64,000 nt of DNA from Gemmatimonadota bacterium (GCA_039589615.1 JBDHHA010000005.1:4431-68430); one strand, 5' to 3'; shown: positions 39,299-49,887, counted from the stretch's first letter. Notes: generated from the letters alone by a model not told the origin. Made by a program: numbers and translations.

Positions 39299-41119
39299 TC
39301 ACTCCCACTCGATGGTCCCCGGCGGCTTTGATGTTATGTCGAGGGCCAGACCGGAGATGCCAGGCAATGCGAGGATGTCGCCGCGAAGCTCGTCCGACAG
39401 GGGTTTGGGCAGCTCCACCGGAGCCGCGGTCATGGCACGCTGAGACCGCACCGGACGCACCACCACGAGCTCTCCCTTCCCCGGTTCGAACTCCAGGGGC
39501 ACCAGCACCGTGGGGCATTGCCAGATCTCGTCGTACAACCCGTGGCGTGTCAGCGCCGCCATCACGATACCATCCGCTTCCCGCAGCAAATCGAGACGCT
39601 CACGCGTGGCGGTAGCCGCGAGGGGACGAACATCGTCAGGCACGGTAGGGGAGAGATTCCATATGCACCGGTTGATCGCCGGGACATCTGCAGTGATGAG
39701 GGACGCTGCTTCGAGGAGGTTGGGCCAGGACACGTCTCCCGACAGCAAGACGGGATGCTCGTACGCCCGCAGATCGGCCTTCACGCCAACCGAGCGAATG
39801 GGAAGCGCAAGAACCTCCACCCCGAACTGTCGACCCAACGCCTGAAGCTGGGATTCGATGGCGTCGAGACCAGCTCGGTCCGGCTCCCCGGCGTTGCACA
39901 ACAGCCGCACTCCCAAGCCGGGGCCCGGGAAGGGATGCCGCCACAGTAGCTCGTGGGAAACGCCCAAGCGCTCGCCCAATTCCCGCACCTCGACCTTGTA
40001 CAACTCGGCAAGGGGCTCGATCACGTTCCCCTCGGCAATCATCTGCTCGATGATCGGCACCCGGTTGTGGTGGGTCTTGATGGTGTCGGCTCGTTTCGTC
40101 GCACCCGTCTCGATCGTATCGGGGTAGATCGTACCCTGTCCCAGGAGGTGGCTTTGGATGCCGAGGCGCTCGGCTTCAGCCTGGAACACGCGAATGAACG
40201 TCTCACCGATGATCGTGCGTTTCTCCTCTGGATCGACGACCCCTTTGAGGGCGTCGAGAAAATCGTCGCTGGCATCCACAAAGTGCAGGTGCTCTCCCAA
40301 TCCCATCTCGTGAAACAGCTCCACCACCTTCCGGCTCTCGTCCTTGCGCATCAACCCGTTGTCGATGTGCAGCAGGTTGAGACGATCGGGACCGAGTGCC
40401 TGTCCGATGATCATTGCGGCCACCGTGGAGTCCACCCCACCGGACACCAGCAGAAACACCGATCGATCTCCCACATGGGCCTTGATCCTCGCCTGCTCCT
40501 CGTCGACGAAGCTCTCCATGGTCCAAGAGGGACGGCATCCGCAGATCTCGAACAGGAAATTGGAGATCATCTGATCTCCGTGAATCGTATCGTCCACTTC
40601 GGGATGGAACTGAAAACCGTAGCGCTTGAGGGAATCGGACCCGATAGCGGCATAGCGATGGTCGGTGGTGCCTTCGGCCGTCGCCGTGAAACCCAACTCC
40701 TCGAACTCGGGTCCTATGCCACTCACCGAGTCGTAGTGACTCATCCACACCTGCTCTACCGGATCGAGGCCGGCAAGGATCTTGTGCTCACCCTTCAAAT
40801 GGAGTTTTGCCCGCCCCCACTCCCGTCCCCCGTGCGTCACCGTGCCGCCGTAATGCTTGGCGATCTCCTGGTGACCGAAGCAGAACCCCACGATGGGAAC
40901 GTCGAGATCGTAGATCTCCTTGGTGTAGTCCGAATCCTCCCCGTGGGAAGCCAGACTCGGGCTTCCCGAGATGATGATTCCCTTGTAGGGCGAAAAGGAT
41001 TCGATGGGGTCCTCGGGCTGGCGAATCTCAGCCAGTACTCCGTGGCGGCGCACCTTCGTGGCGATGAGGTGTGCGTATTGCCCACCGAAATCGACTACGG
41101 CAACGGTGTCGTGTTTCAT
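39299..41119 (-). CDS. guaA: GMP synthase (glutamine-hydrolysing), long form
   Basis: GATase (VGFCFGHQ, FQFHPEV), ATP-PPase P-loop (LLVSGGVDSTV) and C-terminal SKPPGTIEWE. It is 606 aa with an extended C-terminal region. Confidence 0.92.
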   Translation of the reverse strand: MKHDTVAVVDFGGQYAHLIATKVRRHGVLAEIRQPEDPIESFSPYKGIIISGSPSLASHGEDSDYTKEIYDLDVPIVGFCFGHQEIAKHYGGTVTHGGREWGRAKLHLKGEHKILAGLDPVEQVWMSHYDSVSGIGPEFEELGFTATAEGTTDHRYAAIGSDSLKRYGFQFHPEVDDTIHGDQMISNFLFEICGCRPSWTMESFVDEEQARIKAHVGDRSVFLLVSGGVDSTVAAMIIGQALGPDRLNLLHIDNGLMRKDESRKVVELFHEMGLGEHLHFVDASDDFLDALKGVVDPEEKRTIIGETFIRVFQAEAERLGIQSHLLGQGTIYPDTIETGATKRADTIKTHHNRVPIIEQMIAEGNVIEPLAELYKVEVRELGERLGVSHELLWRHPFPGPGLGVRLLCNAGEPDRAGLDAIESQLQALGRQFGVEVLALPIRSVGVKADLRAYEHPVLLSGDVSWPNLLEAASLITADVPAINRCIWNLSPTVPDDVRPLAATATRERLDLLREADGIVMAALTRHGLYDEIWQCPTVLVPLEFEPGKGELVVVRPVRSQRAMTAAPVELPKPLSDELRGDILALPGISGLALDITSKPPGTIEWE

Positions 41120-41260
41120 ATATCCGAGATTGGGATGATTCGAGCTGGCTGCGTCATGTCATTGGCTGCATGAAGTCTAGCACCCGTGGGAAGGGGTCCA
41201 CTATCTTATCGCCGCGCACCCGAATCGGGCGAGCGCTTCGACCCACGCGTAGGAGCAACC

Positions 41261-42400
41261 ATGGGCACCACCCGACGAGACTTTCTTCGCATGTCCGGCG
41301 CCGCCGGCGCTTTGTCCTTTGGGGCAGCGGCTCCCCTCTTTGATCTCGGCCTACATCCCTCGCAGACCCCACGGTCTTCCGCCCCCCTCAAGATATTGAT
41401 CCTGGGTGGGACGGGTTTCATCGGCCCCCACCAGGTTCGCTACGCAATGTCGCAGGGGCACACGGTGACGTTGTTCAACCGCGGTCAAACCAACCCCGGT
41501 CTCTTCCCAAACGTCGAGAAGCTCCGCGGCGATCGGGACGGGGGCCTGGACGTGCTCCGGGGGCGCGAGTGGGACGCGGTGATCGATAACTCGGGATACG
41601 TCCCCCGCCTGGTGCGCGACTCGGCACAGCTCCTCAAGGATTCGGTGGGCCGGTATCTCTTCGTGTCCTCGATCTCCGTCTACGACGTGTCGCTGACGGC
41701 CGGGCAGAACGAGTACGAGGCCCCGATTGCCACCATGGAGGATCCCACCATCGAGGACACACGCCAGTATTACGGCCCCCTCAAGGCCCTGTGCGAGCAG
41801 GAGGTCGAGGCGGCGTTCGGGGACCGCGCCATTTCCGTGCGGCCCGGCGTGATCGCCGGACCGGGAGATCCGACGGATCGCATCCGTCACTGGGTGGCCC
41901 GGGTAGACCGGGGTGGAGAGATCATGGTGCCGGGCGAACCCACCGACCGGGTGCAGTACATCGACGCCCGGGACCTCACCGGGTGGTCCGTGCGCATGCT
42001 GGAGCAAGGCGACTCCGGCCTCTACAACGCCGTGGGCCCCACCGCGCCCCTCTCCAGTGCGGAATTGGTGTACGGCATCCGGGCCGTTTCCAGCGGCGAC
42101 GTGTCGTTCACCTGGGTCGACGAGTCCTTCCTCGCCGAGAATGAGGTATCGGAGTATTCCTACATGCCCTGGCTTCCCAGTACCAACGCCATGCACGCGT
42201 TCAACTACGTCAACCACACCCGTGCGCTCGGCACCGGCCTCACGTTCCTCCCACTGGCCACGACTGCGTTCGACATGCTCGAGGAGTACCATGCGAATCC
42301 CGACCGGCACGAACCGGGGGGGTTTGGACGGCGGGGCGGCGTGCCATGGGCGAGAGAGACCGAGTTGCTCCAGGCATGGCACGCGCGGACGGGGGGATAG
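41261..42400 (+). CDS. NAD(P)-binding epimerase/dehydratase-fold (SDR) protein with Tat signal
   Basis: ATG 41261 gives MGTTRRDFLRMSGAAGALSFGAAAP (twin-arginine motif), then the Rossmann motif ILILGGTGFIGPH. Confidence 0.7.
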   Translation: MGTTRRDFLRMSGAAGALSFGAAAPLFDLGLHPSQTPRSSAPLKILILGGTGFIGPHQVRYAMSQGHTVTLFNRGQTNPGLFPNVEKLRGDRDGGLDVLRGREWDAVIDNSGYVPRLVRDSAQLLKDSVGRYLFVSSISVYDVSLTAGQNEYEAPIATMEDPTIEDTRQYYGPLKALCEQEVEAAFGDRAISVRPGVIAGPGDPTDRIRHWVARVDRGGEIMVPGEPTDRVQYIDARDLTGWSVRMLEQGDSGLYNAVGPTAPLSSAELVYGIRAVSSGDVSFTWVDESFLAENEVSEYSYMPWLPSTNAMHAFNYVNHTRALGTGLTFLPLATTAFDMLEEYHANPDRHEPGGFGRRGGVPWARETELLQAWHARTGG

Positions 42401-42409
42401 GGCGAACCG

Positions 42410-44353
42410 TCACGTAGCGAGGCGGGCAAACCGGCGATTCGAGTTCGGGAAATCCACGCCCATCGCAATCCCGGCCATCGCGCCAAACAGCAGCGAGATG
42501 GCGATCACCGTGACGTCGCCCGTCAGCCGGAACGGAGGAGCCGGTGCCGCGGAAACCATCGTCAGCACCACTCCGATCATCACCGAGACGGCCGCGGCCC
42601 ATTGGTATATGCGGAGCCCACCCACCACGATCGTCTGGGGCTCGCCGCGGTACGCCTCTTCGGCGAACCGCGCCACGCCATTCAGGATGAGGAATGCCCC
42701 GGCCACGACGCCGAGCGGCGCATCGAGACTCCACAACCGCACGAGGATGGCCATCGTCACCACGTTCGCCAAGATCGAGTAGAGCGGCGTGGGGTGTACT
42801 GGCACGCCGCGGAAGGCCGTCATCGTGCAGACTCGCGATCGAGGCGCCCAATAGCGTATGCCGACGCCGTCCCGTGTGGGTCTGCCGTGACAACACCCCT
42901 GCACCAGACACCGAAGCCTCCCGATGCCCTGAACCCACGGTGCGCTCACGGCAAGGGCCGCGAGGAGCAGCAGCACATCGAACCCCATCACGCCCGCGAC
43001 GAGGCAACCCGTGATACCGCCGAAGACCGAGCCGTAGAAACCGAACGGACGAGACAACCCCGAAGCTCCTTCCAGCTTTTGAGCCCACAGGCCGGCCCCC
43101 ACCAGGGCGCACACCGCAACCGCGGCGGACGCGACAACCTGAGTGGGCCCCGCCAGCGACGCTGCGATCCACAACCCACCCCCACCCCCGATGGCCGCAT
43201 ACGCCCCGTGGCTGATGATCCGCACCGGGCCCACACGCCACTCCTTCCACGAGTTCGCCAGGATCTCCGTCCAGTCTCGGAGCCGCTTCCACACGGCCCG
43301 ATAGTTCCAGAAGACGAAGTAGAACACCGCCGCGGATACGATGTCGGCGATGGCGTGCATGCCCGTCGTCACGCAGCTGACCATAATCAGAACCGCCGCG
43401 GTCCATGCCGCGATCCTAAAGCGGGGACCGCGTCGACCCCACGCGCTCGCCGCGAAGAGGGTCCAGATCACATGGAAGGAGGGAAACGCCCCCACGGTGT
43501 GGGACATTGCCCGTTCCCACGTGAGCATCCGTCCGGCAAGCGAGTGCGGTGTGAAGTCCCTGGGGGGCGCGACCACGGGAACGGTGAGGTAGACCAGCGT
43601 GACCACCGCCGTCGCCAGCAGCCCCGCTATCGCAAACCGTCGGAGGTGGGACCGCTTTCGCATGACGAACGGAACAAGTCCGACAAACAGGTAGACGCTG
43701 GCGTAGACCGGCTCCGTCCATTGCAGTACGGGCCAGGTCCGCTCGAAGGGGAAGTATGCCTCGACGGCATCCGGGGGAATGCCGAGTCGATACACCGCCT
43801 CAAAGGCCACCGTCCAGGGCAGGATGACCAAGAGAAAGATCGAGAGGCGTTCCCACCCCGACGGCCGGCCGTCATCGTCCCGCGGCAGCGACACCAAGGG
43901 GCGGCGGGTCTCGACATCCCTCGATAAGCGGCTCAATGCGTCCCGCTCGTGCCCCAACACCAACGCGGTAGCGCTCAGCGCCACAACGGGCGACACGAGC
44001 CAGAGACCGCTGGCGGAGCCACAGCCCACCGAGACGCCCACGCACGCCAACAAGAAGCCGACGTAGATAGGGTGTCCGTAGAACCGGTACACCCCACGCG
44101 TGACGTATTGGGTTGGCGGATAGGCGTTCATGGGAAGGCCGCGCCCGTACACCGTGAGGGCGTACCACCCGGCGAACATCAACGAGACACCCAGGACCAG
44201 AATCATCGCTCCTGCGGTGACGCTCTCCACGGCAGGCAGCGGGACCACGTCTCCCGTGGCCGACGCCCAGGCAACGAGGCCGACCGGGAGCCCGACACAC
44301 CAGAGCACTCCGTACAACCAGGGACCGACTCCGCGCCGTTCCTTCACGACCAT
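42410..44353 (-). CDS. Three-module integral membrane fusion: ICMT/PEMT-like methyltransferase + PAP2-superfamily + Lgt-like diacylglyceryl transferase
   Basis: ATG 44353 starts one uninterrupted 647-aa ORF. The N-terminal module has RGVYRFYGHPIYVGFLL. The middle module has AFPSFHVIWT...TTGMHAIADI. The C-terminal module has RPFGFYGSVFGGITG, GIGRLRCLVQGCCHGRPT, VHPTPLYSILAN and NGVARFAEEAYRGEP. Confidence 0.7.
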   Translation of the reverse strand: MVVKERRGVGPWLYGVLWCVGLPVGLVAWASATGDVVPLPAVESVTAGAMILVLGVSLMFAGWYALTVYGRGLPMNAYPPTQYVTRGVYRFYGHPIYVGFLLACVGVSVGCGSASGLWLVSPVVALSATALVLGHERDALSRLSRDVETRRPLVSLPRDDDGRPSGWERLSIFLLVILPWTVAFEAVYRLGIPPDAVEAYFPFERTWPVLQWTEPVYASVYLFVGLVPFVMRKRSHLRRFAIAGLLATAVVTLVYLTVPVVAPPRDFTPHSLAGRMLTWERAMSHTVGAFPSFHVIWTLFAASAWGRRGPRFRIAAWTAAVLIMVSCVTTGMHAIADIVSAAVFYFVFWNYRAVWKRLRDWTEILANSWKEWRVGPVRIISHGAYAAIGGGGGLWIAASLAGPTQVVASAAVAVCALVGAGLWAQKLEGASGLSRPFGFYGSVFGGITGCLVAGVMGFDVLLLLAALAVSAPWVQGIGRLRCLVQGCCHGRPTRDGVGIRYWAPRSRVCTMTAFRGVPVHPTPLYSILANVVTMAILVRLWSLDAPLGVVAGAFLILNGVARFAEEAYRGEPQTIVVGGLRIYQWAAAVSVMIGVVLTMVSAAPAPPFRLTGDVTVIAISLLFGAMAGIAMGVDFPNSNRRFARLAT

Positions 44354-45144
44354 GTCACTCTCTCGTGGAGCACCCAGCCACTTTCCGGATCGATCCCGCG
44401 CCCGGTGAGCGTTCCGCGGCTGAGCCAACGTTCCTCGAGCAGGTCGAACCCCGATTTGCCGCCTGCCACTCTTGCCATGACACGGAGCGGCCACGCGGAT
44501 CCCAGAACGGGCCGGCGCAGGATCTCGCGCGTCTCGCACCACTCGAGCTGCTGGTCGACGCAGGGCATGTCCACCCCATCTTCATGCAGCGCAGCTTGGG
44601 GAAGGACGAGCTGGTCGTATGTGACCACCTGGAGGGCATGATCTCCCTCCCAGCAGATCCAGATCAGCTCATGATTGGGTGACAGAAACCGACCCCAGCG
44701 GAGACTCCTCACAGGCAGTTTCCAGGGCGGCGCCGTCAGCACGAGCTGCTCCACGTACCCCAACCCTTCGATGGTCACGCCGCCGCCCGAGGTCACGGAG
44801 GCTTGCGCCCTGGGGGCATGACACCGCCAGAGGACGGTTCCCTCGCTCCCGCTGTAAAGCACACGTTCGACGGGAACGCTCAACGGGTTCCAATCGCCTC
44901 CGATGCCAAGCCGGTCGAGCCGCCAGCGCACATTGCGCCGATCGTCCGTTACCGGATCCTCCACGCGGCGGTACGACCGGCGCTCGAGGGCCTTGCCGTT
45001 TCCCTCGAGTAGGGATGACGAGTAATAGAGTGGCAGCGGTCCGAGCTGAAGACGGGCTGAATAGCCGATAAAAACTGTTCCGTCGGCATCGACACAGTCG
45101 AGATACCACTTGGAGAGGTGGAAAGCCGGGCGCTTGTGCAACAT
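44344..45144 (-). CDS. CrtC/AttH-like (hydroxyneurosporene-synthase-fold) soluble protein
   Basis: ATG 45144. SKWYLDCVDADGTVFIGYSARL and EGLGYVEQLVL...LRWGRF recall the carotenoid 1,2-hydratase family. Its stop overlaps the downstream start by 10 nt. The assignment is from memory only. Confidence 0.5.
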   Translation of the reverse strand: MLHKRPAFHLSKWYLDCVDADGTVFIGYSARLQLGPLPLYYSSSLLEGNGKALERRSYRRVEDPVTDDRRNVRWRLDRLGIGGDWNPLSVPVERVLYSGSEGTVLWRCHAPRAQASVTSGGGVTIEGLGYVEQLVLTAPPWKLPVRSLRWGRFLSPNHELIWICWEGDHALQVVTYDQLVLPQAALHEDGVDMPCVDQQLEWCETREILRRPVLGSAWPLRVMARVAGGKSGFDLLEERWLSRGTLTGRGIDPESGWVLHERVTWS

Positions 45145-45309
45145 CGGTCTTCGGTTCCGTGATTGCCGGCGACAGTGCCGCACCTCGGCCCGCGGCTAGC
45201 CCAGGGTGTTTCGCGTGTGCAATATACCCCACCCGGCAAAACGGGGTGTTCCGCCCCATTTTCTCTCACCCGCGCCGACGCACGTCGCGGTTGACACCGA
45301 GGTATCACC

Positions 45310-46758
45310 ATGAGAGTACGCATTCTCCCCGCGACCGTCCTGTTGCTGTGTTACGCCAGCCTGGTGGAAGCACAGGCCCCTCTGTTCACCGATGCGTTTG
45401 CTACCGCCGAGTTCGCCGAGCGCAGGGCTCGGGTCATGGAATCGATCGGCGATGGGGCGGCCGTGATCCAGGGCGCCACCGAGTATCCCGGTTACGTCAA
45501 GTTTCGCCAGAACAACCAGTTCTTCTATCTCGCCGGTGTGGAGGTCCCCCGGGCCATCCTGCTCATCGACGGCCGAGCCAAGACCTCGACGCTGTACATC
45601 TTGCCGCGCAATGAGCGTTTGGAAGGATCTGAGGGACCGGTGCTGGTGCCCGGCGCAGAGGCCGCCAGCGTGACGGGCATCGAGACCGTGCTCCCCCGGG
45701 ATCAATTCGGGCAAGCGCTGTATGCCTTGGGACAGGCAGGACGCACCGTCTACACGCCGTATCGACCGGAAGCGCTCCACGCGGCGACGCCCAGCTACAC
45801 CACCAACCACGCGGCAACTTCCGCCGCCGATCCGTGGGACGGGCGACCCTCTCGGGAGGCTGCGTTCATCGAGCGGATCCGCACCGCGGCACCCCAGTCC
45901 GAGATCCAGAATCTCGATCCGATCCTCGACGCAATGCGCCTCATCAAGAGTCCTCGCGAGATCGAGCTCGTCCGCAAGGCGACCGAGATCGCCGGGGACG
46001 CCATCATCGAGGGCATGCGGTCGGCGTCGCCGGGAATGTACGAGTACGAGCTCGAAGCCGTGGGTGACTATGTCTTCAAGCGAAACAACGCCCAGGGCTA
46101 CGCCTACTTCTCGCTGATCGCCGCGGGGGACAACGCCCATTACCCCCACTACCACGCATCGCAAAGCCGCTTGGAGGACGGGGACCTGGTGCTGTGGGAC
46201 TGGGCACCGGACTACGAGTATTACTCGTCGGACGTCACGCGCATGTTCCCGGCCAACGGAACGTTCAGCCCACGCCAGCGGGAGATGTACACGGTCTACG
46301 TCCGGCTGTATCAGGCTCTCATGACGTCGATCCGGCCTCACGTGACGGCTGGGGAAATCCTCGAGGATGCCGTGGAGCGAATGGAGTCGGTCTTCGCGTC
46401 CTTCGAGTTCACGGACCCGGCAATCAGAGCGGCCGCGGATCGTTTCATCGACATGTACAGGAACGGCAACAGGCGTGACCGCCTGGGACACTGGGTGGGG
46501 ATGGAGGTGCACGACGTCAATGCGCCCTTCGAGGTAATGCAACCGGGGATGATCTTCACCATCGAGCCGGCGCTCCGGATTCCCGAAGAGAAGATCTACA
46601 TCCGGTGCGAGGACACGATCCTGATCACGGAGACGGGATACGAGAATCTCTCCGACTTCGTCCCCATCGAGATCGAAGACATCGAGCGGCTCATGGCCGA
46701 GGAGGGGTTTGCCGAGCGGCTGCGGAAGCTCCGCACCACCACCGACGGCGGCCGCTGA
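45310..46758 (+). CDS. Secreted Xaa-Pro aminopeptidase (M24B)
   Basis: Signal peptide, N-terminal creatinase-like domain (FRQNNQFFYLAGVE) and metal-site contexts (LVLWDWAPDYEYYSSDVTRMFP, HWVGMEVHD, IFTIEPA, IRCEDTI). Confidence 0.85.
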   Translation: MRVRILPATVLLLCYASLVEAQAPLFTDAFATAEFAERRARVMESIGDGAAVIQGATEYPGYVKFRQNNQFFYLAGVEVPRAILLIDGRAKTSTLYILPRNERLEGSEGPVLVPGAEAASVTGIETVLPRDQFGQALYALGQAGRTVYTPYRPEALHAATPSYTTNHAATSAADPWDGRPSREAAFIERIRTAAPQSEIQNLDPILDAMRLIKSPREIELVRKATEIAGDAIIEGMRSASPGMYEYELEAVGDYVFKRNNAQGYAYFSLIAAGDNAHYPHYHASQSRLEDGDLVLWDWAPDYEYYSSDVTRMFPANGTFSPRQREMYTVYVRLYQALMTSIRPHVTAGEILEDAVERMESVFASFEFTDPAIRAAADRFIDMYRNGNRRDRLGHWVGMEVHDVNAPFEVMQPGMIFTIEPALRIPEEKIYIRCEDTILITETGYENLSDFVPIEIEDIERLMAEEGFAERLRKLRTTTDGGR

Positions 46759-46825: not shown

Positions 46826-49531
46826 CTACTCCGCGCGCATCGCTACGGTAGGATCAACCCGTGTGGCGCGTCGCGCCGGGATGAACGCGGCGATCAACCC
46901 CGTCACGGTCAACACCACGACGATGCCGCCAAACACCGTAGGATCGGCGGCCCCCACGTCGTACAACACCAGGGAGAGCATCCGCGCCAATCCGAAGGCC
47001 ATGCCCACGCCGACCACCAGGCCGATGGCCAGCTGCGTGAATCCCTGCCGCATCACGAGCCGCACCACGTTGCCCGGCGTGGCGCCCAGCGCGACGCGCA
47101 GGCCCACCTCGTGGGTGCGCTGGTTCACGCTGAACGAGAGCACGCCGTAGAGCCCCACCGTCGCGAGAAACAGGGCCACGCCGCCGAAGACCGTGAAGAT
47201 GATGCCGAACACCCCGAAGAACGTTTGCGTCTGGTCGATCACCTGTCCCATCGAAAACGACTGGGATATGGGGAGGTGGGGATCCAACGAGGATACGACG
47301 CGCCGGGCGTCGTCGGTGAACTCCAATGCGGGGCCCTGTGTCCGGACGATGATGCTCGCGGCCGACGCGGTACGCTGTGCCAAAGGAATGTAGATCGCGG
47401 TTTCCGGCAGAACCAACGCGTCCATGTCGAGGTAGAGATCCGGCGCGACGCCGACGATGGTGTACCAGGTGTCCGCCCGCGTTCGATCAATGCCCCGCTG
47501 CGATGTGGCCCGCAACTGAATCCGATTGCCCAGCGCCGACTCTTCCGGATAGTGTCGCTCTACAAACGCGCGGTTGACGATGGCCACCGGCATAGCGTCG
47601 GCGTCATCCGCGGCCGCGAACGCCCGCCCTTCCGACATGCTCGCCACGATCGTCGAGAAATACTCCGGGGCGATCGAGCCGATGCGGGCGTTGGGATAGT
47701 CCCGATCACCCAGGTAAGTCTCCCCCTCCATCGCGAAACGTCCGTTTCCACCCCCGACGATGGGCAGCTCCGTGGCCACCGACGCGGCCAACACCCCGGG
47801 TTCCGCTTCCAACCGCTCCGTGAGGGCTCTGTAGAACCGGAGGCGACTTTCGTCATCGGGGTAATCGGCAACAGGGAGCGAGACGGACGTGGTAAACACG
47901 TTCTCCGTGGCAAAGTCGAAATCGATGTTGGAGAAGTTGGTAACGCTCTTCACCAGGAGGCCCGCCGCCACGAGGAGCGCGCAGGAGAACGCTACCTCCA
48001 TCACCACGAGTATGCGGCTGAGGCGCCCGATGCGGAGACTCGACGAGCCGCGGGAGTCATCTTTGAGGACGGCAGTCACGTCGGCCCCCGACGCCCGGAT
48101 CGCCGGCAGGACGCCGGAGAACAGGCTTGCCCCGATGGTGATCGCCACGACGAACAGGAGCACGCTGGGATCGATTCCGATGTCGAACCAGAACGGCAGC
48201 GCCTGGGGATTGGTCTGTAAGAACCCGTTGAACAACCCGATGCCAACCTGGGCCACGCCAATGCCGATCACGGCGCCGACCACGGCGATGACCGTCGCCT
48301 CGGTCAGCATCTGCGCGATGACGCGGCGACGGCTCGCACCCATGGCGGTGCGGACGGCCACCTCCTTGCTGCGCAGGCTCGCCCGGGCGAGCAAGAGGTT
48401 GGCGACGTTGGCGCAGGCCACCAGCAGGACGAGCCCCACGGCACCCAGCATGGTGAACAGCAGGGTCGCCATCGGCCCGATCATCTGCCGCACGTAGGGG
48501 CCCATGACCACCGTCATCCCTTCATTGGTCTCAGGGTATTCCTGTCCCAACTGCGTCATGATGCGCTGGAGGTCGGCCAAGCCCTGGGCCGTGGACACGC
48601 CGTCCGCGAGCCGGCCGAGCATCGGGAATACACCCGGCCCCTCTCCGCGGGGGGTGCCGAGGTAGTCCATTTTGAGGGGCCGCCACAGCTGCTGATTGAG
48701 AGGAAACGCGAAATCCTCCGGCATCACACCCACCACGGTCGTCGGCGTGCCATCGATACGGAGGACGGTTCCCAACACGGCGGGATCCCCATCGAGGCGT
48801 TCCCGCCAGAACCGGTGGCCCACCACGGCCACCGGGGGCGCGCCCAACTCCTCGTCGAAATCGGCAAGGCCGCGACCCAACAACGGCGGGGTCCGCAACA
48901 GATCGAACATGCTGGCCGAGACCGTTGCGGAGTTGATGATCTCGGGCTCGCCGGTCACGGGACTGAGATTCACCGCGTCCACGGAGATCGCCGCGAGATC
49001 CTCGAACGTGGTCTGCCGCTCGCGGAGGTCTCGGAAATCATGGATCCGCCCGATGAGTCGATTCGGCCCCTGGGAGGGATTGTTGCGGCTGATGGCCATG
49101 AGGTCCTGGGGCTCTTCGACAGGTAGCCCCCGGAGCACCACACCGTTGACGATGCTGAACATGGCGGTGGTGAGCCCGATGCCGAGACTCAGGGCGGTTA
49201 TCGCCGTAATGGCCAACCCCGGTTTCCGCACCAATCCGCGGACGGCGTAATGAAGGTCTTTCGCCAGGTTGTGCATCAATTGCCGTTCCTTCCGGACGAC
49301 CGGCCCCACCCTGCGGGGCGGTCGAATGACGTAGGTCCACCAGACACGAGGAACCGTCACAACGAAATCCCGTGTGATGTGGGCAGCGAACCGCCACCGC
49401 GGGCTGCCTCGTCCCCGTTCCCTGCTCCACCCCTCACGAAACGCCATGACCAGGTCCCGCTCGTACTGCTCGCGGAACGAACGGGGGTAGAGCCGCAGCA
49501 GGGCACGAAACCATCGCTGTGCACGCATCAC
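46826..49531 (-). CDS. Duplicated MacB/FtsX-type permease without ATPase (ADOP-like), copy 2
   Basis: 901 aa. The N-terminus is RWFRALLRLYPRSFREQYERDL. It has the same two-half architecture as copy 1 (LVACANVANLLLARA and LATVGLYGVLSFSV). Start is GTG 49531 or ATG 49528. Confidence 0.8.
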   Translation of the reverse strand: MMRAQRWFRALLRLYPRSFREQYERDLVMAFREGWSRERGRGSPRWRFAAHITRDFVVTVPRVWWTYVIRPPRRVGPVVRKERQLMHNLAKDLHYAVRGLVRKPGLAITAITALSLGIGLTTAMFSIVNGVVLRGLPVEEPQDLMAISRNNPSQGPNRLIGRIHDFRDLRERQTTFEDLAAISVDAVNLSPVTGEPEIINSATVSASMFDLLRTPPLLGRGLADFDEELGAPPVAVVGHRFWRERLDGDPAVLGTVLRIDGTPTTVVGVMPEDFAFPLNQQLWRPLKMDYLGTPRGEGPGVFPMLGRLADGVSTAQGLADLQRIMTQLGQEYPETNEGMTVVMGPYVRQMIGPMATLLFTMLGAVGLVLLVACANVANLLLARASLRSKEVAVRTAMGASRRRVIAQMLTEATVIAVVGAVIGIGVAQVGIGLFNGFLQTNPQALPFWFDIGIDPSVLLFVVAITIGASLFSGVLPAIRASGADVTAVLKDDSRGSSSLRIGRLSRILVVMEVAFSCALLVAAGLLVKSVTNFSNIDFDFATENVFTTSVSLPVADYPDDESRLRFYRALTERLEAEPGVLAASVATELPIVGGGNGRFAMEGETYLGDRDYPNARIGSIAPEYFSTIVASMSEGRAFAAADDADAMPVAIVNRAFVERHYPEESALGNRIQLRATSQRGIDRTRADTWYTIVGVAPDLYLDMDALVLPETAIYIPLAQRTASAASIIVRTQGPALEFTDDARRVVSSLDPHLPISQSFSMGQVIDQTQTFFGVFGIIFTVFGGVALFLATVGLYGVLSFSVNQRTHEVGLRVALGATPGNVVRLVMRQGFTQLAIGLVVGVGMAFGLARMLSLVLYDVGAADPTVFGGIVVVLTVTGLIAAFIPARRATRVDPTVAMRAE

Positions 49532-49539
49532 GTGGCTGC

Positions 49540-49887
49540 CTATACCACCCGCTTGGCGCGTGCGAACTTGACCACCTTGGACAAGGTTTGGGCTTCCCGC
49601 TTCAACACCGCCCGCCCGGGCTCCGTGAGTCGGTAATAACGGCGTCGCTCCGTCCCGGGCTCCACGGGGGACGACGCGGGGACTTCCTCGATCAACCCTA
49701 CCGCCGCCAGGCGCCCCAGGGACCAGTAGAGCGACCCCGGCCCCAGCTTGATGGCCCCCTCCGACCGCTCCTGGACCTCCTGGGCCATGGCGTAGCCGTG
49801 GCGCTCCTCGTCGACGAGGGTCAGAAGCAGATAGAAGAACGCGGGCGTGATGCGGACCGGCGACTTGGCACCGTCGGAATTGGACAA
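49540..49887 (-). CDS. PadR-family transcriptional regulator, copy 2
   Basis: TTG 49887 with AAGGGGG upstream. Core is FFYLLLTLVDEERHGYAMAQEV...GSLYWSLGRLAAVGLIE...RRRYYRLT. Confidence 0.85.
   Translation of the reverse strand: MSNSDGAKSPVRITPAFFYLLLTLVDEERHGYAMAQEVQERSEGAIKLGPGSLYWSLGRLAAVGLIEEVPASSPVEPGTERRRYYRLTEPGRAVLKREAQTLSKVVKFARAKRVV

Follow-up and report, generated by a model that had tools for sequence, protein, structure and literature searches.

What do two overlapping genes make when one encodes three lipid-enzyme modules in a single membrane polypeptide and the other a small soluble protein? The genes lie in a 64,000-nucleotide stretch of a Gemmatimonadota bacterium (GCA_039589615.1 JBDHHA010000005.1:4431-68430; hereafter the window, whose coordinates are used unless a locus is named). 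They occupy its minus strand, the gene for a soluble 266-residue protein (the partner) coming first and that for a 647-residue polytopic protein (the fusion) second. The modules of the fusion resemble phospholipid or isoprenylcysteine methyltransferases (PEMT, ICMT), PAP2-type phosphotransferases and the prolipoprotein diacylglyceryl transferase Lgt. The reading favoured here, at a little short of an even chance, is that the products of both genes form one conserved complex for tailoring a membrane lipid, distinct from the lipoprotein enzyme Lgt; this weight applies to the general lipid-tailoring form, and any specific substrate is given much less.

The fusion begins with the residues MVVKERRG, and at the junction of the two open reading frames (ORFs; ...GTGACATGGTCGTGAAGG) its ATG and the partner's TGA share 10 nt, ATGGTCGTGA, with a purine-rich GAGAGAG immediately 5′ of the overlap. 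A first-pass annotation of the window had described this coupling, and it is read directly in the sequence. Junctions in six related loci (L001, L002, L085, L086, L087 and L088) have a 4- or 10-nt overlap or a 2-nt gap. Longer GTG-initiated forms (710 and 279 aa) were rejected because the homologues align from the ATG starts. The pair is flanked by a convergent NAD-epimerase gene (ending at 42400) and a divergent M24 aminopeptidase gene (starting at 45310), and the farther neighbours (SfsA, a MetA-type outer-membrane protein, GMP synthase, a MacB/FtsX-type permease and PadR) are unrelated to it, so that the partner and fusion genes look like a two-gene operon.

44344..45144, minus strand: partner gene, soluble 266-aa protein with a predicted AttH/CrtC-superfamily fold and no signal peptide (ORF, AlphaFold2, Foldseek)
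42410..44353, minus strand: fusion gene, 647-aa polytopic protein with ~18 predicted transmembrane helices (ORF, Pfam, AlphaFold2, homologues)
44344..44353, minus strand: 10-nt overlap ATGGTCGTGA of partner stop and fusion start (sequence reading)

The fusion is one uninterrupted ORF, and the three lipid-enzyme modules that had been proposed for it all score above their Pfam gathering thresholds: PEMT (30.7 bits against 25, E 4e-7, residues 46-131), PAP2_3 (53.3 bits against 27, E 4e-14, residues 209-348) and LGT (73 bits against 24.9, E 3e-20, residues 431-599). ICMT reaches 20.5 bits, below its threshold of 24. Every motif quoted in the first-pass annotation is present at the place given for it. 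The AlphaFold2 model (106 homologues) is one confident rigid body with 18 long helices (predicted local distance difference test, pLDDT, 90.7; predicted template modelling score, pTM, 0.91). Foldseek matches this model to Escherichia coli Lgt (5azb; E 1.3e-5, TMt 0.61, 267 aligned columns), to human SMSr (8ijq) and inositol phosphorylceramide (IPC) synthase (9vj4), both at probability 1.0, and also to PgpB with a farnesyl ligand and to LpxE; no ICMT structure is in the list for the full-length model. Fold comparison alone found these relationships, and a profile of the fusion has no match among the sequences of solved structures.

43904..44353, minus strand: PEMT/ICMT-type methyltransferase module, residues 1-150, four transmembrane helices (Pfam PEMT, AlphaFold2 helices)
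44053..44146, minus strand: conserved methyltransferase loop GRGLPMNAYPP...RGVYRFYGHPIYVGF, residues 70-100, predicted cytoplasmic (cluster conservation)
43304..43858, minus strand: PAP2_3 module, residues 166-350, six transmembrane helices, catalytic side predicted periplasmic (Pfam, Foldseek, topology)
43472..43486, minus strand: PAP2 C2-type motif FPSFH with His294 (cluster conservation)
43343..43369, minus strand: PAP2 C3-type motif TTGMHAIAD with His333 and Asp337 (cluster conservation)
42410..43303, minus strand: Lgt-like module, residues 351-647, predicted inverted (Pfam, Foldseek, hhalign, Lys+Arg counts)
42884..42922, minus strand: rebuilt Lgt signature motif GRLRCLVQGCCHG, residues 478-490 (hhalign, cluster conservation)
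42638..42670, minus strand: RFAEEAYRGEP, residues 562-572 (hhalign, cluster conservation)
42413..42457, minus strand: conserved tail VDFPNSNRRFARLAT at the C-terminus, following the extra eighth helix and predicted cytoplasmic (alignments)

The methyltransferase module has helices at residues 9-32, 45-69, 95-111 and 114-143 of the model. Across 131 representative clusters, retention is at least 93% at each of eleven positions (G70, G72, P74, M75, N76, G87, P95, Y97, G99, G134 and E136), 89% at Y89 and 85% at H94. The conserved GxG, HPxYxG and Glu136 motifs are predicted to be cytoplasmic, and may be equivalents of the known ligands of S-adenosylmethionine (SAM). In the middle module the PAP2 triad is retained at H294 (92/96 clusters having the module), H333 (92/96) and D337 (91/96). 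The Lgt-like module consists of an arm hairpin, seven Lgt-type transmembrane helices and one extra C-terminal transmembrane helix, followed by a tail whose residues D634, F635, P636, R644 and L645 never vary across alignments A1, A3 and A4 (D634 in 126/127 clusters, P636 in 127/127).

The partner has no match in Pfam or NCBIfam, its profile has none among PDB sequences, and the CrtC/AttH Pfam families match none of 69 partner-family members at E up to 1. Its AlphaFold2 model is confident (pLDDT 92.8) and all-beta, and Foldseek retrieves kievitone hydratase (7a0t), AttH (2ich), the pericyclases Fsa2, Phm7 and CghA, and a 25-phosphosteroid lyase at E 1e-8 to 2e-6 and probability 1.0; 7e5t and 9g4c are also listed (E 1e-8 to 1e-6). 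The two-barrel AttH fold is matched best in 7a0t and 2ich (E ~1e-8, TMq 0.52-0.61). The earlier description of this protein as CrtC-like thus holds for the predicted fold and not for the sequence family. A signal peptide would not fit, its conserved FxLSKWYLDC block beginning at residue 8. Many Trp residues are conserved, D16 and E132 are invariant acidic positions, and an invariant Y130-x-E132 and near-invariant W106-x-C108 are spaced similarly to the CrtC catalytic residues H239/W241...Y266/D268 (PMC4717167), a resemblance of spacing. A related precedent is the archaeal hydroxy-glycerol dialkyl glycerol tetraether synthase Hgs, an AttH-like hydratase that hydrates membrane-lipid tails and whose gene overlaps that of its membrane-associated partner enzyme, the radical SAM desaturase Ted (bioRxiv 10.1101/2025.10.20.683597).

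Scanning a single genome for each species found relatives of the fusion in 381 of 185,579; full-length homologues have 53-73% identity. The best 80 loci listed are mainly from Gemmatimonadota and Acidobacteriota (Terriglobales, Bryobacterales, Blastocatellia and Thermoanaerobaculia) and include Bacteroidota, Chlorobiaceae, Methylomirabilota and Polyangiaceae; exact-protein look-ups added contigs of Chitinophaga and Planctomycetes. Of 83 loci, 78 have the partner gene immediately upstream of the fusion gene and in the same orientation, and four of the other five have no upstream room. In the fifth, a Polyangiaceae locus (L055), a divergent homologue of the partner (hhalign probability 98%) is encoded on the opposite strand at a distance of 1.5 kb, and counting it the partner stands beside the fusion in 79/79 assessable loci. 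The linkage suggested for the pair is thus conserved across phyla. No third conserved gene emerged when all neighbouring ORFs of the 83 loci were clustered and substrate, protease, regulator and isoprenoid or sphingolipid genes were sought; the other neighbour clusters are shadow ORFs in the GC-rich fusion gene or lineage-specific synteny and were set aside. The partner and fusion genes are a conserved, mobile two-gene module.

At L055 (3719-5739, minus strand, of the Polyangiaceae metagenome-assembled genome contig JBGANF010000050.1) the 276-aa partner homologue overlaps the end of a 397-aa radical SAM gene by 4 nt, in an operon divergent from the fusion gene; this resembles the archaeal Ted-Hgs pair and is a single case.

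These relatives also bear on the explanation that the fusion is an assembly or frameshift artefact joining separate genes. More than 100 independent full-length clusters of ~645 aa carry the full architecture in assemblies from NCBI, JGI, ENA and Logan, the relatives span the 381 genomes, and the model is a single confident body by its pTM; the chimera check raised by the first-pass annotation therefore returned conserved full-length relatives and linkage, and an artefact is improbable to the point of being negligible.

A profile search of 1.8 billion representatives gave 485 clusters at E<1e-30, of which the best 150 were sorted with module-specific hidden Markov models into four groups.

99 clusters of the best 150: PEMT + PAP2 + Lgt architecture
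33 clusters of the best 150: PEMT + Lgt, middle module absent or degenerate
15 clusters of the best 150: apparent fragments
3 clusters of the best 150: partner fused at the N-terminus

The three N-terminal partner fusions (P0222, P0249 and P0330) align to the partner profile at E 1e-46 to 1e-69 (hhalign), the PAP2-less variants keep the partner gene directly upstream, and some relatives have lost the catalytic histidines of the middle module; PAP2_3 is absent or degenerate in about a quarter of related clusters. Because PAP2-less and partner-fused forms exist, the invariant system is the AttH-like protein, the methyltransferase and the Lgt-like module, and PAP2_3 is a frequent add-on that, to judge from its sequence, is apparently functional where present. 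Of the idea that the fusion is a dedicated three-module machine, then, the modules are real and the place of PAP2_3 in the core did not hold.

Two sets of partner-fused forms have settings of their own. On the JGI contig Ga0599164_0000624 (L089; 5218-5928, minus strand) a divergent stand-alone PAP2_3 gene of 236 aa with intact PSMH and HxxxD motifs adjoins P0249, whose internal PAP2-like module has no catalytic histidines. This single case hints that PAP2 activity is still needed; the two downstream genes at L088, where the PAP2 module of the fusion is also degenerate, include no stand-alone PAP2, leaving L089 as the only locus with one. P0222 (906 aa; L090, 6001-8721) and P0330 (874 aa; L091, 836-3460) lie on gene-sparse contigs, and L090, with ~41% GC, carries saposin A/B domain genes; because of this gene sparseness and the saposin genes, the carriers may be microbial eukaryotes that gained the system as one gene.

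On which side of the membrane the sites face can be followed along the chain. The methyltransferase loop 70-94 and Glu136 are assigned to the cytoplasm because SAM is cytoplasmic, so that helix 4 ends inside. From there, six PAP2 helices put H294, H333 and D337 outside, the usual arrangement for PAP2, and return the chain to the cytoplasm at residue 350; the Lys/Arg-rich loops 231-238 and 306-313 lie opposite H294 and H333, with the PAP2 active site predicted to be non-cytoplasmic. Residues 351-382 form a charged amphipathic helix and the arm hairpin and cannot span the membrane, and in the PAP2-less variants ~30 polar residues join the methyltransferase to the arm hairpin. With six PAP2 helices or none, helix parity therefore has the Lgt-like module entered from the cytoplasm, while the N-terminus, arms, head and active site of E. 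coli Lgt are periplasmic (PMC4728403).

Charge gives the same answer. Family-wide, the whole fusion has a mean of 29.6 Lys+Arg in predicted cytoplasmic loops against 4.6 in periplasmic ones, and the Lgt-like module 18.3 against 0.31. Loops homologous to the periplasmic loops of E. coli Lgt carry 15.1 in the fusion (18.3 with the C-terminal tail) and 5 in E. coli, whereas those homologous to its cytoplasmic loops carry 0.08 and 12, respectively; the loop between the seventh and the extra eighth helix, which is non-cytoplasmic and has no E. coli counterpart, brings the non-cytoplasmic total of the fusion's Lgt-like module to 0.31. The eighth helix is predicted to return the tail (DFPxSxRRFxRL) to the cytoplasm. 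Helix parity and the positive-inside bias are independent lines, both strong, and agree on inversion as read from sequence and model: the Lgt-like cavity is predicted on the cytoplasmic side, opposite to that of E. coli Lgt. So placed, it would not act on exported lipobox proteins as Lgt does, and it would share a face with the SAM-dependent methyltransferase and the soluble partner.

The active site of the Lgt-like module is partly retained and partly rebuilt. By hhalign, GRLRCLVQGCCHG aligns with E. coli G142-RLGNFINGELW-G154, and the Lgt signature becomes CxxQxCCH in the fusion. Retained positions (E. coli to fusion) are R143 to R479, G154 to G490, H196 to H520, Y201 to Y525, R239 to R562, E243 to E566 and R246 to R569; changed ones are N146 to C482, N149 to Q485, E151 to C487, L152 to C488, W153 to H489 and H103 to Y440. 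Y26 corresponds to H382 by eye, from a shared GP-hairpin motif outside the reach of the hhalign alignment. Within the signature, R479 is kept in 125/127 clusters, C482 in 126/127, C487 in 126/127, C488 in 127/127 and H489 in 125/127. RFAEEAYRGEP is the E. coli R239/E243/R246 block (R562 127/127, E565 127/127, E566 123/127, R569 126/127), and the equivalents of R143, R239, E243 and R246, the donor-phosphate Arg pair with its hydrogen-bond network, are each kept in at least 123/127. The new cysteines are predicted to sit in the Lgt-like cavity and not remote from it, because in the Lgt crystal structure N146, N149 and E151 are part of the hydrogen-bond network buried in the catalytic cavity (PMC4728403). 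In the AlphaFold2 model a short, Arg-rich 36-residue loop stands in place of the E. coli head domain.

Two of these changes were considered as evidence against an Lgt function and given up. The H103 position is Y or F in 121/127 clusters, and Y, W and F occur there naturally in genuine Lgt of other phyla, among them Firmicutes and Actinobacteria, according to a 2026 survey of the diversity of Lgt (PMC13251419); H103Y was withdrawn since genuine Firmicutes Lgt has Y there (PMC13251419). N146A and Y26A are non-functional in E. coli Lgt (PMC13251419). The Cys motif alone was likewise rejected as proof of a non-Lgt function, N146C being present in Leptospira Lgt and Mycobacterium smegmatis MSMEG_5408 (PMC13251419); because N146C, E151C and Y26H occur in possibly genuine Lgt, the motif by itself is compatible with diacylglyceryl transfer to protein.

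Could the fusion nevertheless be the housekeeping Lgt with extra domains, as NCBI annotation suggests? Some relatives are named 'prolipoprotein diacylglyceryl transferase' in the source databases (others 'protein-S-isoprenylcysteine O-methyltransferase Ste14' or 'inositolphosphotransferase'), the Lgt fold and the four conserved Arg and Glu equivalents are present, and N146C variants are found among real Lgt homologues (PMC13251419). Against this stand the predicted inverted orientation, the periplasmic head domain's replacement by the loop and the constant pairing with a cytoplasmic partner. The NCBIfam Lgt equivalogs also fall far under their cut-offs (NF000778, 65.7 against 334; TIGR00544, 32.3 against 118.9), and the system is sparse while Lgt is universal in bacteria (PMC13251419). 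With E. coli Lgt as query, phmmer matched no ORF at E 1e-3, the fusion included, in the window and ~90 loci, the part of the carrier genomes that was covered. Mainly on account of the orientation, the lost head domain, the obligate cytoplasmic partners and the distribution, a housekeeping role is very unlikely, in agreement with the earlier suggestion that this is not housekeeping Lgt; it and the artefact explanation are effectively excluded.

The lipid-tailoring complex would work as follows. The partner, the SAM site and the Lgt-like cavity would act together on the cytoplasmic (inner) leaflet, with the PAP2 triad facing the periplasmic leaflet. The Lgt-like module probably still binds a phospholipid or polyprenyl phosphate, a lipid phosphate ester being proposed because the Arg pair R479/R562 is kept together with E566 and R569. 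It probably transfers a lipid moiety onto a non-lipobox acceptor, cleaves one, or performs an altered reaction; such an acceptor is proposed because the acceptor side has been rebuilt with three cysteines and a histidine. Possible roles for this Cys/His cluster are metal-dependent activation of a thiol or hydroxyl for alkylation, acyl transfer by a Cys-His catalytic pair, and a purely structural metal site. Enzymes of the AttH superfamily catalyse hydration or elimination at tertiary carbons in hydrophobic chains. The AttH-like subunit, if it works like CrtC, kievitone hydratase and Hgs, may bind a hydrophobic tail and protonate or hydrate a branched or isoprenoid C=C bond. The methyltransferase might cap the product on a hydroxyl, carboxyl, amine or phosphate, and on the outer leaflet a phospho-head group might be exchanged or removed by the PAP2 module where there is one.

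The two sites predicted on the cytoplasmic face also suit a different product, a protein. In a CaaX-like lipidation machine the Lgt-like module would lipidate a Cys of a cytoplasm-exposed protein or peptide and the ICMT-like module would methylate the carboxyl of the lipidated C-terminal Cys. It is established that Lgt-family chemistry is thiol alkylation and that the ICMT family methylates S-lipidated cysteine. As farnesyltransferase does, the Cys3-His cluster could use zinc to activate a thiol. Lipidation of a C-terminal Cys by an as yet unidentified enzyme has been proposed for bacterial MYXO-CTERM proteins, but in the periplasm (PMC11980579). The loci themselves speak against such a machine: no conserved substrate gene lies beside the pair in the 83 loci, a linked CaaX-type protease is lacking, Cys is the last residue of neither the fusion nor the partner, and C108, the one Cys that is near-invariant in the partner, is replaced by Val in the homologue at L055. 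Of the methyltransferase families PEMT matches best, with ICMT below threshold, and the invariant AttH-like subunit would be left without a role. Protein lipidation of this kind is distinctly unlikely.

The AttH-like subunit is instead central to an explanation in which the pair acts on a small molecule, isoprenoid or xenobiotic, and not on a bulk membrane glycerolipid; a polyprenyl phosphate, a carotenoid, a quinone and a prenylated plant phenolic are candidates. This molecule would be hydrated by the AttH-like subunit and O-methylated, and the Lgt-like and PAP2 modules would transfer alkyl or phosphate groups. Tertiary isoprenoid carbons are where every characterised hydratase or lyase of the AttH superfamily acts (CrtC, kievitone hydratase, Hgs and 25-phosphosteroid lyase), PAP2 enzymes commonly handle polyprenyl diphosphates (the PgpB matched by Foldseek holds a farnesyl ligand), and CrtC followed by an O-methyltransferase is the established order in the spirilloxanthin pathway of carotenoids. 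But isoprenoid or carotenoid genes are linked at none of the loci, the partner lies outside the CrtC Pfam family, and the PAP2 module is closer to the phosphodiester head-group transferases SMSr and IPC synthase than to monoester phosphatases. This explanation, too, is on the unlikely side.

Several points weigh against the favoured lipid-tailoring complex itself. N146C, E151C/D and Y26H occur in distant homologues (L. interrogans Lgt, MSMEG_5408) whose activity is weak or unresolved (PMC13251419). The methyltransferase call comes from a modest Pfam score (30.7 bits), and the PEMT clan also holds NADPH-dependent reductases; one relative has a weak DUF1295 match. The partner has no sequence-level match to the CrtC/AttH families and could be a non-catalytic lipid-binding subunit. 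The topology is a prediction from helix parity and charge, and the favoured function is drawn from sequence, models and family chemistry. Among the phyla with the pair there is no obvious known lipid in common that would need such chemistry.

A further and more novel reading is possible, though less likely than not: a new inner-leaflet pathway in which an inverted Lgt-fold Cys3-His enzyme would alkylate or acylate a non-lipobox acceptor and the methyltransferase and AttH subunit would finish the product, either a new lipid class or a prokaryotic counterpart of CaaX-type modification, the pathway extending to some microbial eukaryotes as a four-module polypeptide.

Around the pair, the window holds further features.

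45145..45309, no strand assigned: intergenic region from the partner gene to the divergent M24 aminopeptidase gene, presumed operon promoter region (position only)

The convergent epimerase gene (41186-42400, plus strand) encodes a 404-aa NAD-dependent epimerase/dehydratase family protein with a twin-arginine-like N-terminus, TRRDFLRMSGAAGA; with 9 nt between its stop codon and that of the fusion gene there is no space for separate terminators. Overlapping long ORFs in other frames (42240-43927, both strands; 388 aa minus, 441 aa plus, and others) cover the fusion gene, as do the same shadow ORFs in at least 70 related loci; they are by-products of high G+C content (64-66%) and not genes. Beyond these lie the GMP synthase gene (39299-41119, minus strand; 606 aa), with Pfam GATase, ATP-pyrophosphatase and C-terminal domains and an unassigned stretch between them, a typical bacterial GuaA being shorter, and the gene for a 901-aa MacB_PCD/FtsX-type permease (46826-49887, minus strand), 8 nt ahead of which a PadR-family regulator gene ends. 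Such permease-PadR pairs are common in Acidobacteriota and Gemmatimonadota. Rfam scans at gathering threshold and tRNA scans found no Rfam family and no tRNA gene in the whole 64-kb window.

The first-pass annotation knew of no characterised enzyme with this architecture, and full-text literature searches found no paper describing it. A full-text search on PAP2_3 in bacteria gave nothing relevant, and a paper on the lipocone superfamily and one on myxosortase (PMC11980579) mention Lgt in passing only. The individual folds are known; their combination, the obligate AttH-fold subunit and the predicted inversion of the Lgt fold are undescribed, and there is a real chance that the chemistry is new. 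Lgt is seen as a single-purpose, periplasm-facing enzyme and an antibiotic target, and a widespread, inverted, thiol-rich Lgt-fold module joined to a methyltransferase would, if true, be a second chemistry of the fold. The labels Lgt and Ste14 given to fusion relatives are probably misleading, and hundreds of such database entries would then probably be mis-annotated. The carriers include dominant soil and sediment bacteria (Acidobacteriota, Gemmatimonadota and Bacteroidota), some of whose membrane lipids have an unexplained biosynthesis, and a self-contained two-gene module, which cultured Chitinophaga carry, suits heterologous expression.

Compared with known systems, the fusion has in common with E. 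coli Lgt (5azb/5azc) the seven-helix fold, the arm-1 hairpin and equivalents of R143, G154, H196, Y201, R239, E243 and R246, but has C, Q, C, C and H for N146, N149, E151, L152 and W153, H for Y26 and a reduced head, is predicted to face the opposite way, and adds the eighth helix, the conserved C-terminal tail and the joined enzymes. It shares the N146/Y26 substitutions with MSMEG_5408 (Y26H, N146C) and L. interrogans Lgt (N146C and a second Cys) (PMC13251419); these two, compared by description only, are described as stand-alone, with no fusion, AttH-like partner or inverted topology reported. Like PEMT and ICMT (Ste14), the N-terminal module has four helices, a cytoplasmic GxG...HPxYxG loop and a conserved Glu after the last helix, but it stops right after an RRFG motif, without the usual C-terminal segment, and the ICMT model scores below threshold. 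Leptospira LmtA is an example of how the PEMT/ICMT family can also methylate a lipid phosphate. The middle module resembles SMSr, sphingomyelin synthase and IPC synthase (Aur1) in its six-helix PAP2 core, its non-cytoplasmic His-His-Asp triad and the absence of a KxxxxxxRP C1 motif, and differs from them in sitting between two other enzymes, being dispensable in many relatives and having no linked sphingolipid genes. Eukaryotic CaaX processing (farnesyltransferase, Rce1 and ICMT) is analogous in function only: a lipid phosphate ester alkylates a thiol on the cytoplasmic face of a membrane, and the carboxyl is then methylated; here there is no protease and no identified protein substrate, and the transferase fold is another one. 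The partner has the two-barrel all-beta fold of the AttH-superfamily enzymes (CrtC, kievitone hydratase, Hgs and 25-phosphosteroid lyase), but is ~60-100 residues shorter, lacks sequence-profile membership, and has WxC...YxE at a spacing similar to HxW...YxD of CrtC. Hgs pairs with a radical SAM desaturase whereas the AttH-fold partner here, except at L055, pairs with a polytopic transferase; Hgs is nonetheless a precedent for an AttH-fold protein that acts on membrane-lipid tails alongside a membrane-associated enzyme encoded by an overlapping gene.

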